Shown here: positions 3,941-36,623 of the stretch, in pieces | Layout of the letters: each line of letters begins with the position of its first letter | Numbering within the stretch: the first letter of the stretch is position 1 | Assembly (NCBI GenBank): GCA_964016885.1 | Contig: OZ024740.1 | Coordinates: 122,574,001-122,638,000, forward strand | DNA: 64,000 bases | From: Eledone cirrhosa | Lineage: Eukaryota | Reading direction: 5' to 3' | The notes under the pieces: generated by a model | Seen by the model: only the letters and a program-made list of their open reading frames with translations | Database searches by the model: none | Told to the model about the DNA's origin: nothing | Program-made: the position numbers and the translations under genes

Positions 3941-5564
3941 GCAAAGTTTTATTTAAATTGTTGGGTTACAACAAGTAAATATTTATAACTGATATAAAAG
4001 CACTCAACAAGTATTTGGAGTATATTTACGATATTAAATAAATGGAAACTATATTTATAAAACCATATTTATTTCATTATATATATTTCAGGGATATCAT
4101 ATTAAAAATATGGTATGCCTTCACCAGACAAAATACAATATAAACAGTCTTATAAATAGATAGATTTGACATACCTTACAACTTCAACTTCCATTTAAAA
4201 AGTTGATTTGGTAGTGAAAAATGTTAGGGACAGTTATAAAAAGAAAGAAAGAAAGAAAGCGAAGAAAAAGAAGAAATGCATGCAACGAAAAACAGAGAGA
4301 GATAGATATAGAGAGATAGATAGAGAGAAGAAATTCATGTAAAGAAAAAACAGAGAGAGATAGATAGAACTTGGCACTATATTGTCAATTAATTTTGAAG
4401 GGTTGATTTCTGTGGTTGATTTGCGGGGCATACTGTGTTTTATTTTTTAATATTTTTTAATATTTTTATTTTTATTGATATATTGATATCTGTTGTCTAT
4501 TTATGCTTGAACGATAATCATGTAGAGTAAAGACAAGAATAGTATTGTTAAAATTAATGTAGATTCTATATATATTTGTGCGTATGTACACATATATGTA
4601 TACTAGAATTTTTATAGCACAATGAGAAGGTTTTCATGTGAAATAGGAATTTGCAGAGTTGATCACGTAAATTCACATGGATGTCTATAGTATCGAATCT
4701 GGGATAACCTTCTATTTTCTTTTTCTTTTTTTCATGAAAGTGCATATATACTTATGTATTTCAATTTTTTTGAAGTTTTTATCTCAGTTTTTTTATCTCA
4801 GTTCTGATTATAAACCTAGGAATTTTAAACTAGACATATGATCATTATTTTTCACACATTATTGATACGTGTCTCATTCATGAATACTGATATTTACATT
4901 ATAATACCTAATTCATACGAATTGATATTTTAGATTGATGAAACATAATGTTTTAAATCTGCCTCGTTTATCTCTGGATATTTTTCTTTTCTCTCTATGT
5001 AACGGCTGTTTTCTCTCCTAACCACATATATCTCTCTCTACCTTAATACTAGAACTAAATAAATAAATAAATAAATATATCATTGATACGTCATTCAACT
5101 GGTGCCCAACTACCTATTTTTCTCTCTCTCTATCTATATCTATATCTATCTCTCTATATTTTTTCTCTCTCTCTCTCTCTTCTCTCTCTCTCTCTATCTA
5201 TCTCCCTCTGTTTTTTTCTCTCTCTATCTATCTCTCTCTGTTTTTTCTTCACATGAATTTCTTCTCTCTATCTATCTCTCTATATCTATCTCTCTCTGTT
5301 TTTCGTTGCATGCATTTCTTCTTTTTCTTCGCTTTCTTTCTTTCTTTCTTTTTATAACTGTCCCTAACATTTTTCACTACCAAATCAACTTTTTAAATGG
5401 AAGTTGAAGTTGTAAGGTATGTCAAATCTATCTATTTATAAGACTGTTTATATTGTATTTTGTCTGATGAAGGCATACCATATTTTTAATATGATATCCC
5501 TGAAATATATATAATGAAATAAATATGGTTTTATAAATATAGTTTCCATTTATTTAATATCGTA
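3941..5564. mobile_element. Fold-back element 1: inverted Penelope-like pseudo-LTR pair between (TA)n tracts
   Basis: 4027-4368 is the reverse complement of 5223-5564 (about 340 bp, two mismatches seen). The spacer is about 850 bp, both outer ends abut (TA)n, and the arms contain a hammerhead motif. Confidence 0.8.
5456..5521 (+). ncRNA. Minimal type I hammerhead ribozyme
   Basis: TATTTTGT-CTGATGA-AGGCATACCATATT..AATATGATATCCCT-GAAA-TATATA-TA-ATGAAATA: 8-bp stem I with two GU pairs, long stem II, palindromic stem III. The mirror copy near 4070-4135 has the core mutated to CTGGTGA. Confidence 0.7.
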
Positions 5565-5730
5565 TATATATATATATATATATATATAGTTATATATATA
5601 TATATACATATATATATATATATAAATATATATATATATATATATATATATATATATATATATATATATATCCTATATATATATATATATATATAGTTAT
5701 ATATATATATATAGTTATATATATATATAT

Positions 5731-5978
5731 ATGTAAGCTATCGCCGTATTTTGACTAAAGAAATTAAAGAAATTATTTAGCCTGATAGTGGGGTTAAGAG
5801 CCCTCGGAGGAAAACGATGACCATGTACGTCAATACTCATCTTTTTCCATTTCTCCGAGGGTTCTTAACCCCACTATCAGGCTAAATAATTTCTTTAATT
5901 TCTTTAGTCAAAATACGGCAATAGCTTACATTTCTAATAATTTCAAACCAACTCGCTGTTTTGAAAATATCCTTGCTT
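5731..5978. mobile_element. Fold-back element 2 in (TA)n, no recognisable hammerhead
   Basis: 5731-5809 pairs with 5853-5931 (79-bp arms). The loop itself folds (GGAAAACGATGA/TCATCTTTTTCC), a 47-bp unpaired tail follows, and (TA)n lies on both sides. Confidence 0.7.
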
Positions 5979-7751
5979 TATATATATATATATATATATA
6001 TATATATTTCTAGAGAAGATGGGAGACTTCATTTTTCCATTGTTTTTTTGTTGTCTTTGTCCTGTGTGCCCCCTATTTTAAACCATATGCTTCCTTCTAC
6101 TATGGTGGAATGTCTTTCTCTCCCTCCTATGAGCCAACAGTATTTGCATCACTCTCTTAATGTACTGCTTAGTCTCAAAGAATGGCAGTCCATATTGCCT
6201 AGACAGGCATGGAGAGACAGACACATTCCATAAAATATATTGGTTTGGGTTGTGTAAGGGTATCAAATGCATGGGACCACCTCTCTGAGCATCCCCCTCC
6301 CATCTCTCTTCTTGCTTATGTGCTTGCATATACTACATATGCACGCTATCTCTCTCTCTCTCTCACACACACACATATATATATACATATATGTGTGGGT
6401 GTGTGTATGTTGTCATGTGAGGGGCCCACCCAGATCTAAAGCTGTACTTGTGTGTATTTGTGTGCCTCTATTTGGATGTGTTTGTGTATGCACATACTTG
6501 TAGAAATAAAATTCTAAGCCAGGTAGGTATAAGGCAAGAAGGAAATTCATAACACCATGTTATTACTGCACAAGGATAACTTTTTGGCTGGTGTTATTTA
6601 AATAATTTAGTGTGCTCAGTTTAGCATTGGAGATAAGGAAGAAATGTAAGCTGAATTTCATTTTATGACATTCAATTTGATCCTCCCCGCTAAATTTGAA
6701 ATACTACAGAAATTAAATTGTTGTTGATCTCCTTGCTCTATTAAATGAGTACTAGTAATACGTATTGCATCTAACATTTCAATATATAGGGTACCTTGAA
6801 CATCTAACCTTCTATCAAATGCATTTAACAACATAATTTTTATTTAAAATGTAGTAGTTGTTTTTGTTGTCTATACATGTATTGCAACTGATAAATTGAC
6901 TGATAATTGATAAAATTTAATTAAATTTAATAATGAATGCCTACAGGGATTCTTTTATAAGTTTTAGAGGCATCCTGTGTATCCCTATTTTCATTTTGAA
7001 TTTTAATATGAATTTCTTTCATATTTAATGCTTGATTAATAATAATTAAACCAAAATATTATTTGATTACAAAAATAATGTGATGATGATCTACAGACTT
7101 TTATCCAAGTAATTGTGGAAATGTTAGGTTGTTAAAGACTCAGAAAATATATACATTAGCATAATGCCTCAAATTTGTGGAGAAAATATTCGATTAAAAT
7201 GAATGCTGTATTTCACTTATTTTTATGTTTTTATCAACCCAGAATATTGAAAGGCAAAGTTGATCTTGGCAAGGATTGAACTCATTTACATTCTCCACTT
7301 AGGTTTTTTAAGATATAATCATCTGAGATATCTTATGATTTTTAAATTAATACCAATTAGTATTGATAACATTTTTCGAGAGTCTCTGAAATAGTTGGAG
7401 TGAAAAAAGAACAATAAATTAATTCTATCACTCAAATAAGAGCCAGTAAAGTAGATGCCATTTAGCCTGTTAATGTAATAATTCAGATTTGATTGTAGGA
7501 TTAATCTTTTAAAACATTATACTGAAAACTTTAATAGCTTTTTGACCATGGAACACCACTCATTTAGTCTCCCCCCCCCCCTCTCTGTGTCAATGATTTT
7601 TTGCAGTCATTTGTTTGCAATTGTACAAGAGAAACATTAACCACATCAATTTTTCTAGTCTCAGAGGTTTGCAAAATCTGTGGACATAGCACCTTCCTAC
7701 AGATCAAACAGTAATTGAAAAACAAAAGTAAATGTCCCTCTCCTTTCACTA

Positions 7752-8033
7752 AGTATCTAAAGTCTAAAATCTGTCTCAAGCCCAGAGGCTCATAAAGTCG
7801 ATTTTTGTCCTGGTTTGTGTGAGAGTATAATATTTCCCACTGCACATGACACCAATCCATTGCAGTGTTGACCTTGCATCTATTGCTGGTACTCATTTTC
7901 AGCTGAGTATACTGGGGCAACGTGTAATGAAGTGCTTTTTTGTAAAGAACATAACACACAACCCAGTCCAGGAATCAAACCTACAATATTATGAATGTAA
8001 GTCCAACACCCTTACCACAATGCTACATGCTTC
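7752..8033 (-). mobile_element. tRNA-derived SINE, same family as 43575-43830
   Basis: Reverse complement shows a tRNA-like head, CACTTCATTACACGTTGCCCCAGTATACTCAGCTGAAAATGAGTACCAGC core and GAGCCTCTGGGCTTGAGACAGATTTTAGACTTT tail. Confidence 0.75.
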
Positions 8034-35802: not shown

Positions 35803-36031
35803 TATATATATATGTATTTATATATATATAATATATATATATATATATATATATATATATATATATATATATATATATATACATAATGTTCTAACCACTA
35901 AGCCATGTGCCTCCATATATATATATATATATATATATAATGGAAACATTTGAACAGGGACAAAACAGAGAGGCAGTACAACGATTGTTTATTAATTTGA
36001 CGCTCTGGGGAGTGCGGTGTTGGTGGGGGGG

Positions 36032-36059
36032 GACGTTTCGGGCATAAGCCCTTCCTCAG
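36032..36059 (-). ncRNA. Minimal Penelope-type hammerhead core
   Basis: Minus strand CTGAGGA-AGGGC-TTAT-GCCC-GAAA-CG-TC with AATAAA downstream; stem I is not paired in this copy. Confidence 0.7.
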
Positions 36060-36268
36060 GTGAGAAGTGTGTGGGAACAGAGTTCAAAGGGTGTGTAGGG
36101 GAGTGGTGGAGAGACATATAACGAAAGGAAACGGTGCGAATGAAAAAATAAAAAAATAAAGATAAAAATAAAGCATGATCAAATTACAAGGAATGAAATA
36201 AATTTAAATATATATATATATATTAGAATTGGAGCTCTGAAATAGCAATATATATATGGATGTATATA

Positions 36269-36623
36269 TAATGTATTTTGCAATACACTTTATGCTTAAT
36301 TAAAAGCATTTTGAAGACCGTAAGCTATTGTGTTAAAGTAGTAACAAATTCACTCACTTTGATCTCAGCAAACAGGGGAGATAAGCCGACAAGACTTGTT
36401 TCGCCTTGGTTTAAGCTTATCAAGGCCAACTACCCCACCATCTCAGCAAACAGGTGGGGTAGTTGGCCTTGATAAGCTTCAACCAAAGCGAAACAAGTCT
36501 TGTCGGCTTATCTCCCCTGTTTGGTGAGATCAAAGTGAGTGAATTTGTCACTACTTTAAAACAAAAGCTTACGGTCTTCAAAATGCTTTTAATTAAGCAT
36601 AAAGTGTATTGCAAAATACATTA
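36269..36623. mobile_element. Fold-back element 6 in (TA)n
   Basis: 36269-36439 pairs with 36453-36623 around a 13-nt loop; TA repeats on both sides. Confidence 0.85.
36466..36507 (+). ncRNA. Type I hammerhead with U3-A8 compensatory core
   Basis: GCC-TTGATAA-GCTT-CAACCA-AAGC-GAAA-CAAG-T-CTTG-TC-GGC. The same core is present in the mirror arm, and stem I can extend via ATCTCAGCAAACAGG/CCTGTTTGGTGAGAT. Confidence 0.75.

Follow-up and report, generated by a model that had tools for sequence, protein, structure and literature searches.

Six fold-backs at (TA)n tracts of Eledone cirrhosa as probable severely truncated insertions of Penelope-like elements

Insertions of Penelope-like elements (PLEs) are described, in the accessible text of the source, as carrying an adjacent inverted and 5'-truncated copy, a tail of 30-40 bp at one end and a hammerhead ribozyme in the pseudo-long terminal repeat (pseudo-LTR); the same text reports a bias towards (TA)n in the Hydra and Naiad clades, as well as non-autonomous PLEs (PMC8557442). 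Inverted pseudo-LTRs of about 180-220 bp, palindromes at head-to-head junctions, a self-priming model and solo pseudo-LTRs are found in the available part of Arkhipova et al. (2013, PMC3846280), and a curation guide, as far as accessible, counts inverted pseudo-LTRs and 3' extensions among the peculiarities of PLEs (PMC8969392). As for the ribozymes, the accessible part of Cervera and de la Pena (2014, PMC4209133) describes minimal hammerheads on opposite strands, 100-700 bp apart, with a U3-A8 core, an extra base after A9 and a palindromic helix III. Retrozymes, according to the available texts, are head-to-tail tandems (PMC7229834; bioRxiv 10.64898/2026.07.22.740005). Here, six fold-backs, named A to F, are compared with these systems. 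They lie in a stretch of 64,000 nt of Eledone cirrhosa (contig OZ024740.1 of assembly GCA_964016885.1, positions 122,574,001 to 122,638,000), which is referred to as the window and from which all positions below are counted.

The explanation favoured for A-F, with a probability of about 0.8, is that they go back to separate insertions of different endonuclease-bearing PLE families into (TA)n, all with severe 5' truncation, and that each is made of a hammerhead-bearing 3' end and an inverted second copy of it.

Layout of the six fold-backs

The six fold-backs were recovered by inverted-repeat search, self-BLAST and pairwise alignment, all of them where the initial annotation had placed long inverted repeats devoid of a common sequence. 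No real similarity links the six, the top cross-match being one of 30 nt between A and E (E = 0.003). Their arms range from 90 to 342 nt with identities of 93-99% and at most two indel blocks per pair, D being a near-perfect palindrome (Table 1). A perfect (TA)≥7 run is found no more than 1 nt away from 11 of the 12 fold-back ends and the twelfth, on the right of E, adjoins an interrupted TA tract, which bears out the (TA)n flanks reported at first; only 3.3% of the window is situated within 15 nt of such a perfect run.

Table 1. Positions of the fold-backs, hammerhead motifs, single 3' ends and PLE coding remnants in the window (ORF, open reading frame; RT, reverse transcriptase)
Feature	Position	Strand	Arms; loop or spacer	Substitutions/columns	Tail	Remarks
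Fold-back A	3941..5564	-	4027-4368 (tail side), 5223-5564 (inverted); 854-nt spacer	2/342	left, 86 nt (3941-4026)	spacer without evident ORF
Fold-back B	5731..5978	+	5731-5820, 5837-5931; 16-nt loop	3/90	right, 47 nt (5932-5978)	
Fold-back C	25664..26511	+	25664-25940 (inverted), 26204-26488; 263-nt spacer	18/277	right, 23 nt (26489-26511)	partial direct copy between the arms
Fold-back D	33153..33576	-	33193-33380, 33386-33576; 5-nt loop	6/188	left, 40 nt (33153-33192)	
Fold-back E	35127..35802	+	35127-35393, 35499-35747; 105-nt CA-rich spacer	18/249	right, 55 nt	
Fold-back F	36224..36623	-	36269-36439, 36453-36623; 13-nt loop	6/171	left, 45 nt (36224-36268)	
Hammerhead motif, inverted arm of A	5456..5521	+				CUGAUGA core 5464-5470; top score of the relaxed scan
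Hammerhead motif of C	26163..26248	+				CUGAUGA core at 26171; relaxed scan
Single unfolded 3' end with hammerhead	34422..34515	+				CUGAUGA core at 34433, helix II of 11 bp; points into a TA-rich tract
Single 3' end, distorted hammerhead	33640..33775	-				core with extra A at 33763, helix I of 5 bp; by inspection, missed by the scans
Single 3' end, minimal hammerhead boxes	35940..36060	-				CUGAGGA at 36059; by inspection, below the scan threshold
5'-truncated, frameshifted PLE	19440..22083	+				RT, linker and GIY-YIG endonuclease coding 19458-21150; (TA)n at both ends
Second PLE remnant, Hydra-like	25221..25439	-				CxCX5C linker and start of the endonuclease; across the TA tract bordering C

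A tail, considered optional by the initial annotation, is present in all six (23-86 nt), always unpaired and on one side only. The places of the elements were correctly given at first, except that the limits of D and F left out their left-hand tails. As a whole, the termini are asymmetric in every case, unlike symmetric terminal inverted repeats, which reach both ends. An inverted 5'-truncated copy stands head to head with the first in all six, the orientation being set by the hammerhead in five of them.

Long inverted repeats at TA are also a feature of miniature inverted-repeat transposable elements (MITEs) and of Foldback DNA transposons. A-F could thus be derivatives of DNA transposons (MITE, Foldback or helitron-type) residing at TA, with hammerheads that are incidental, a reading most plausible for B, which has no hammerhead and whose tail folds as a small hairpin in prediction. 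However, A-F differ from such elements by their one-sided tails and asymmetric termini, by the lack of any terminal motif common to the six and by hammerheads that are far above chance expectation and all oriented towards the tail, and a DNA-transposon origin is considered very improbable. In Octopus vulgaris, the accessible part of the annotation lists 190 PLE families, corresponding to 6.83% of the genome, and 74 MITE families totalling 0.19 Mb (PMC13282606), which does not suggest large-scale mislabelling as MITEs in that genome.

The fold-backs might also be chimeras of assembly or amplification: the arms of A are 99.4% identical and the junctions are taken from the assembly only. Yet five of the six arm pairs differ by 3-7% substitutions with few indels, the transition:transversion mix between arms is like that of other repeat pairs of the window, each fold-back has exact TA-tract bounds and a one-sided tail, and the unique flanks are not duplicated. 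Of all the explanations considered, this one is the least likely. Of the words sampled from 25660-35650, a share of 0.71-0.74 is present in three sequencing runs of one sample; these runs are possibly the source data, and this share is not specific to the elements. No RNA run containing such words was listed in this sequencing-run search.

Concerning the internal organisation, a partial tandem of the pseudo-LTR type is clear in C only; none was found in A, B and E, and the loop of D is too short for such a comparison. In C, the spacer begins with 41 nt that repeat the 3' end and tail in direct orientation (score of 65 vs. a shuffled maximum of 29). With it, positions 25937-25992 match 26468-26523, which delimits a tail-to-tail unit of about 531 nt without evident ORF. 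Each of the three sense frames of this unit is interrupted by stops, and the unit does not match a PLE protein profile. C is the full textbook form, with an inverted arm, a partial direct copy and a unit ending in the same tail. The 13 nt of the loop of F (36440-36452) recur in direct orientation inside the arm of this element (score of 26 vs. a shuffled maximum of 18), which suggests a templated insertion at the inversion junction. The 5-nt loop of D would fit the self-priming model proposed for palindromic junctions. As for the inner end of the arm, it is situated 16 (F), 42 (D), 70 (E) and 241 (A) nt upstream of the hammerhead core and, in C, 33 nt downstream of the core start; a clustering of the inversion junctions at the hammerhead was rejected, as no tight cluster is seen and five cases are too few.

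Vis-à-vis the PLE insertions described, A-F thus share the inverted 5'-truncated copy, a head-to-head junction that is sometimes palindromic, the partial tandem (in C), a tail at one end, a hammerhead near the 3' end and a microsatellite target, here (TA)n, as given for the Hydra, Naiad and Neptune clades. They differ in being nearly reduced to the two ends alone (250-1600 nt, without ORF), in their tails of 23-86 nt and in the presence of six families within 33 kb.

Other features of these elements were observed. An 88-nt TC-rich unit in 1.9 copies (5139-5303) straddles the boundary between the spacer and the arm of A. The tails of C and B are predicted to fold as small hairpins (z = -3.4 and -2.4, respectively), and that of C ends at an ATG directly before the TA run; a hairpin conserved among the tails was rejected, with p < 0.05 in B and C only and not in the other four. 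Finally, a 4.3-kb hotspot of TA tracts extends over positions 32432-36690. It includes D, E and F as well as three or more single 3' ends of the hammerhead-like type, several of these elements sharing a TA tract back to back, as if the same microsatellites had been targeted repeatedly.

Hammerhead motifs and their predicted folding

Five of the fold-backs carry a type I hammerhead, as first reported, and the four core spellings then given were right: CUGAUGA (A and C), CUGAAGA (E), CCGAAGA (D) and UUGAUAA (F). None was found in B. A relaxed structure scan, covering the core and helices I-III and allowing an optional extra base and one core mismatch, returned nine motifs with a score of at least 8, vs. 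a mean of 0.5 (maximum of 2) in 30 local dinucleotide shuffles. Six of the nine are in fold-backs, namely A (two), C, E and F (two), and one belongs to the single 3' end at 34433. The two remaining matches, at 27223 (+) and 6082 (-), have mismatched cores and were set aside as probable chance. In a stricter scan, four motifs scored at least 9, all in A, E and F, vs. 0.13 expected. The significance of both scans is somewhat flattered, because they were written after the motifs had been seen. The hammerhead of D is below the scan threshold and was recognised by inspection.

The motif in the inverted arm of A has a helix I of 8 bp, a long interrupted helix II and a palindromic helix III, with a predicted cut after 5513; in the tail-side arm, the core is mutated to CUGGUGA at 4127. 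In C, helix II has only 2 contiguous bp and helix III 5 bp, the cut being predicted after 26239. D has a minimal CCGAAGA hammerhead in both arms (core 33429-33435 on the plus strand), with an extra A, a palindromic helix II closed by G-C, the GAAA box and a palindromic minimal helix III; 3 nt behind the core are missing from its tail-side copy, and helix I is weaker in the other arm. The CUGAAGA core of E, at 35569, is followed by an extra base after A9, with a predicted cut after 35603. F carries a U3-A8 UUGAUAA hammerhead in both arms (36469 on the plus strand, 36423 on the minus strand) with all three helices present. In all five, the motif of the tail-side arm reads towards the tail, its predicted cut being 137-272 nt from the 3' end. 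Damage to the core or to a helix affects at least one arm in each of A, C, D and E.

Hammerhead-bearing 3' ends without a paired arm (Table 1) likewise point into TA tracts. The end at 33640..33775 points into the TA tract shared with D; that at 35940..36060, which points into (TA)n, has an extra base, a helix II of 4 bp and a palindromic helix III, and lacks helix I. A CUGAUGA box situated about 60 nt before a TA run, in 35040-35113, is without an intact GAAA box and is possibly a decayed PLE 3' end. When a 20-nt motif from F was searched in metagenome contigs, three loci were found, all by chance (similarity over only 21-23 nt; 47-50% G+C).

Compared with the hammerheads described in the accessible part of PMC4209133, those of A-F have the same type I topology, a short palindromic helix III and opposite-strand pairs 100-700 bp apart, as well as an extra base after A9 (D and E), a U3-A8 core (F) and the G10.1-C11.1 pair (C, D, E and F). 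By contrast, the CCGAAGA core (U4 to C) found in both arms of D is not among the variants given in that part, A closes helix II with A-U, and no cephalopod is named there. Animal non-LTR retrozymes resemble A-F in being short and ORF-less, with a type I hammerhead and a proposed PLE origin, but they are tandems with at least two hammerheads of the same sense, whereas A-F are head to head with one per strand. The unit of C, present in about 1.1 copies with one core, is also larger, at 531 nt, than retrozyme monomers, of some 300-390 nt in the available descriptions.

In whole-element folds, the pairing probability of the core is about 1 in A, D, E and F, and the GAAA box is paired in C. The predicted cost of freeing the core on the sense strand is 28.9 (A), 11.4 (C), 27.8 (D), 25.2 (E) and 25.1 (F) kcal/mol, and on the other strand 21.4 (D), 29.2 (E) and 25.1 (F) kcal/mol, i.e. 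a range of 11-29 kcal/mol over the eight element and strand cases computed. A read-through transcript, whichever its strand, contains the antisense arm ahead of the sense arm; the ribozyme is therefore predicted to be silent within the hairpin, and a free one would be expected only on transcripts starting at the junction. Cleavage as dimers was also considered and found no support: minimum-energy cofolds of seven motifs gave no clean double hammerhead, and a partial one for F only.

The initial annotation had gone further and proposed a class of self-cleaving hairpin elements, a claim that is not upheld by cores predicted to be sequestered and by damage to the core or a helix in most copies. 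In its mobile version, the hairpins would be fold-backs transposing as whole units. Six cases on one plan in 33 kb, a complete U3-A8 hammerhead in both arms of F and loops of only 5-16 nt in D, F and B all speak for it. Set against these are the predicted full pairing of the core in A, D, E and F and of the GAAA box in C, the damage in A, C, D and E, six different junction types without a common sequence, and the behaviour of minimal PLE hammerheads, for which single copies are reported, in the accessible text, to be without detectable in vitro cleavage as monomers and low as dimers (PMC4209133). Transposition of the hairpins as such is therefore judged very unlikely, and the folds rather point to the hammerhead as a passenger from the pseudo-LTR, its core predicted to be buried in long double-stranded RNA.

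Origin of the fold-backs

Two PLE coding remnants lie close to the fold-backs, and both match RT/GIY-YIG proteins. A protein search with the product of 19458-21150 returned 7504 proteins at E ≤ 0.001. The regions of the RWK and DKT motifs were lost from the PLE of the window by 5' truncation, and these motifs were read in homologues: among 26 long ones, DK[T/S] is present in 25, DKG in none and RW[K/R] in 15. In the alignment, the CxCX5C linker is intact in the minus-strand remnant and its first C is replaced in the plus-strand copy; CxxC is present, the H of CxH is replaced, and the endonuclease is C-terminal, without CCHH. By these linker and endonuclease motifs, with CxxC/CxH around E and N, the remnants appear Hydra-clade-like; such motif marks and insertion in (TA)n are given for the Hydra clade in the accessible text of PMC8557442. 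The plus-strand copy also has a decayed hammerhead of the U3-A8 type (21977-22060), within some 900 nt that follow its ORF. No informative match was found in Pfam or PDB for the PLE pieces or their homologues, and none of 14 candidates from viral contigs was confirmed as related to the PLE protein. At the 5' truncation point (19329-19485), a 55-nt inverted copy of the junction (84% identical) stands beyond a (TA)12 run, the TA tract being inside the hairpin; directly behind the same PLE (22080-22262), a 92-nt unit occurs twice, separated by TA runs.

The PLE origin, the many families, the TA targeting and the extreme 5' truncation put forward by the initial annotation agree with structural marks that match published PLE insertions and with the Hydra-like remnants nearby. 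In the favoured explanation, the GIY-YIG endonuclease would nick a TA microsatellite, and reverse transcription would start in a read-through tail beyond the pseudo-LTR and stop after a few hundred bases. A second copy of this end would then be added at the junction in head-to-head orientation, through self-priming by snap-back or through a second priming, and, being without tail, would produce the order arm-loop-arm-tail. Alternatively, the body might be lost by recombination between two direct pseudo-LTRs, with the same product, and one locus cannot separate these routes. The arms, identical at the start, would subsequently undergo neutral decay. Their divergence ranges from 0.6 to 7.2%. An unusual excess of transversions between arms was considered and rejected, the transition:transversion counts (22:31) not differing from those of seven other repeat pairs of the window (98:87; p = 0.16). 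With the rate of 0.0036 per site per million years given for O. bimaculoides in the accessible part of PMC13282606, hand arithmetic gives rough ages of 0.8 million years for A, 4-5 for B, D and F, and 9-10 for C and E, provided that the arms were identical when inserted and underwent no gene conversion.

Several results weigh against this explanation. Neither the arms nor the spacers of A-F match, within the window, the two coding remnants, the 3' end of the Hydra-like copy or the profile of the 26 homologues. Because no arm matches a PLE protein, the family assignment of A-F relies on architecture and motif. Self-BLAST revealed no second copy of any arm in the 64 kb. Only one of the six tails is inside the published 30-40 nt, those of 23, 55 and 86 nt being clearly among the others, B has no hammerhead, and target-site duplications are unreadable inside (TA)n. 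In Rfam, the only hammerhead matches are two to HH9, both located in F and below the gathering score of 52 (24.5 and 18.5 bits); the other Rfam matches in the window are only microRNA-like, to hairpins and TA runs. As for the clade, Hydra, Neptune or, for the hammerhead-less B, Naiad are possible.

At least some of the fold-backs, C first, may instead be copies of short, ORF-less, non-autonomous PLE families moved in trans, the inverted arm being made anew at each insertion. This is a possible, though less probable, reading; it is compatible with the favoured explanation and differs from it in the template only. The tail-to-tail unit of C, delimited by its 41-nt direct copy and without match to a PLE protein profile, makes C the best candidate of the six, and the spacer of A is also without PLE protein match; precedents are MRC1 (PMC8557442) and the retrozymes derived from PLE ends (bioRxiv 10.64898/2026.07.22.740005), as far as these sources are accessible. 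C is nevertheless present in a single copy in the window, an ordinary element with an internal deletion would look alike, and the 900 nt or so behind the ORF of the Hydra-like copy imply that such non-coding spacers need no special family. Concerning a tRNA-like promoter in the spacer of C, ARAGORN found no tRNA in the window.

Other repeats and significance

Besides the PLE-related sequences, the window holds a broken LINE (long interspersed nuclear element) on the minus strand (55433-60400), which retains parts of its endonuclease and RT as well as upstream ORFs and whose best named match is an Argonauta hians protein (62% identity). The 3' part of another LINE-like element, with an (AAT)n tail at its end, is located at 54000-55155, and a decayed RT-like fragment, probably of a LINE and without useful Pfam match, at 22997-23800. 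A 117-nt unit resembling a short interspersed nuclear element (SINE) is present in three tandem copies at 48154-48567, with dispersed relatives at 24356-24460, 42798-42937 and 48855-48995. The SINEs of the window look octopus-like, which, together with the Argonauta match, suggests an octopod host. Finally, a 326-nt tandem duplication (95% identity) is found at 61086-61737.

Both the architecture and the ribozyme variants are already described, and the finding therefore mainly adds cephalopod examples. No paper on octopus hammerheads or fold-back PLE stumps was found in a search that left most subscription journals, Repbase, Dfam and the O. vulgaris Zenodo library outside its reach, and the terms 'hammerhead' and 'Hydra' do not occur in the O. 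vulgaris repeat supplement (PMC13282606).

A wider proposal, speculative and rather doubtful, is that octopod genomes hold many ORF-less mini-PLE families, C with its 531-nt unit being one example, that a long near-perfect hairpin in (TA)n is their standard product, and that the inverted arm acts as an antisense switch. Were this true, read-through RNA would be double-stranded and devoid of ribozyme activity, and would serve as a substrate of A-to-I editing in cephalopods and of silencing by small RNAs, whereas divergent transcription from the junction would yield two hammerhead RNAs of the same sense, dimerising via the palindromic helix III and cleaving. The set of many families would then be a test bed for the role of the PLE hammerhead and for the origin of the inverted copy and tail.

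The accessible text of PMC8557442 names as open questions the way in which PLEs form their inverted copy and tail, and the function of their hammerhead. In a genome with many stumps from many families, the position of the junction could be mapped against the hammerhead, with the arm pairs as built-in clocks and, if transcribed, the long hairpins could feed RNA editing or silencing.

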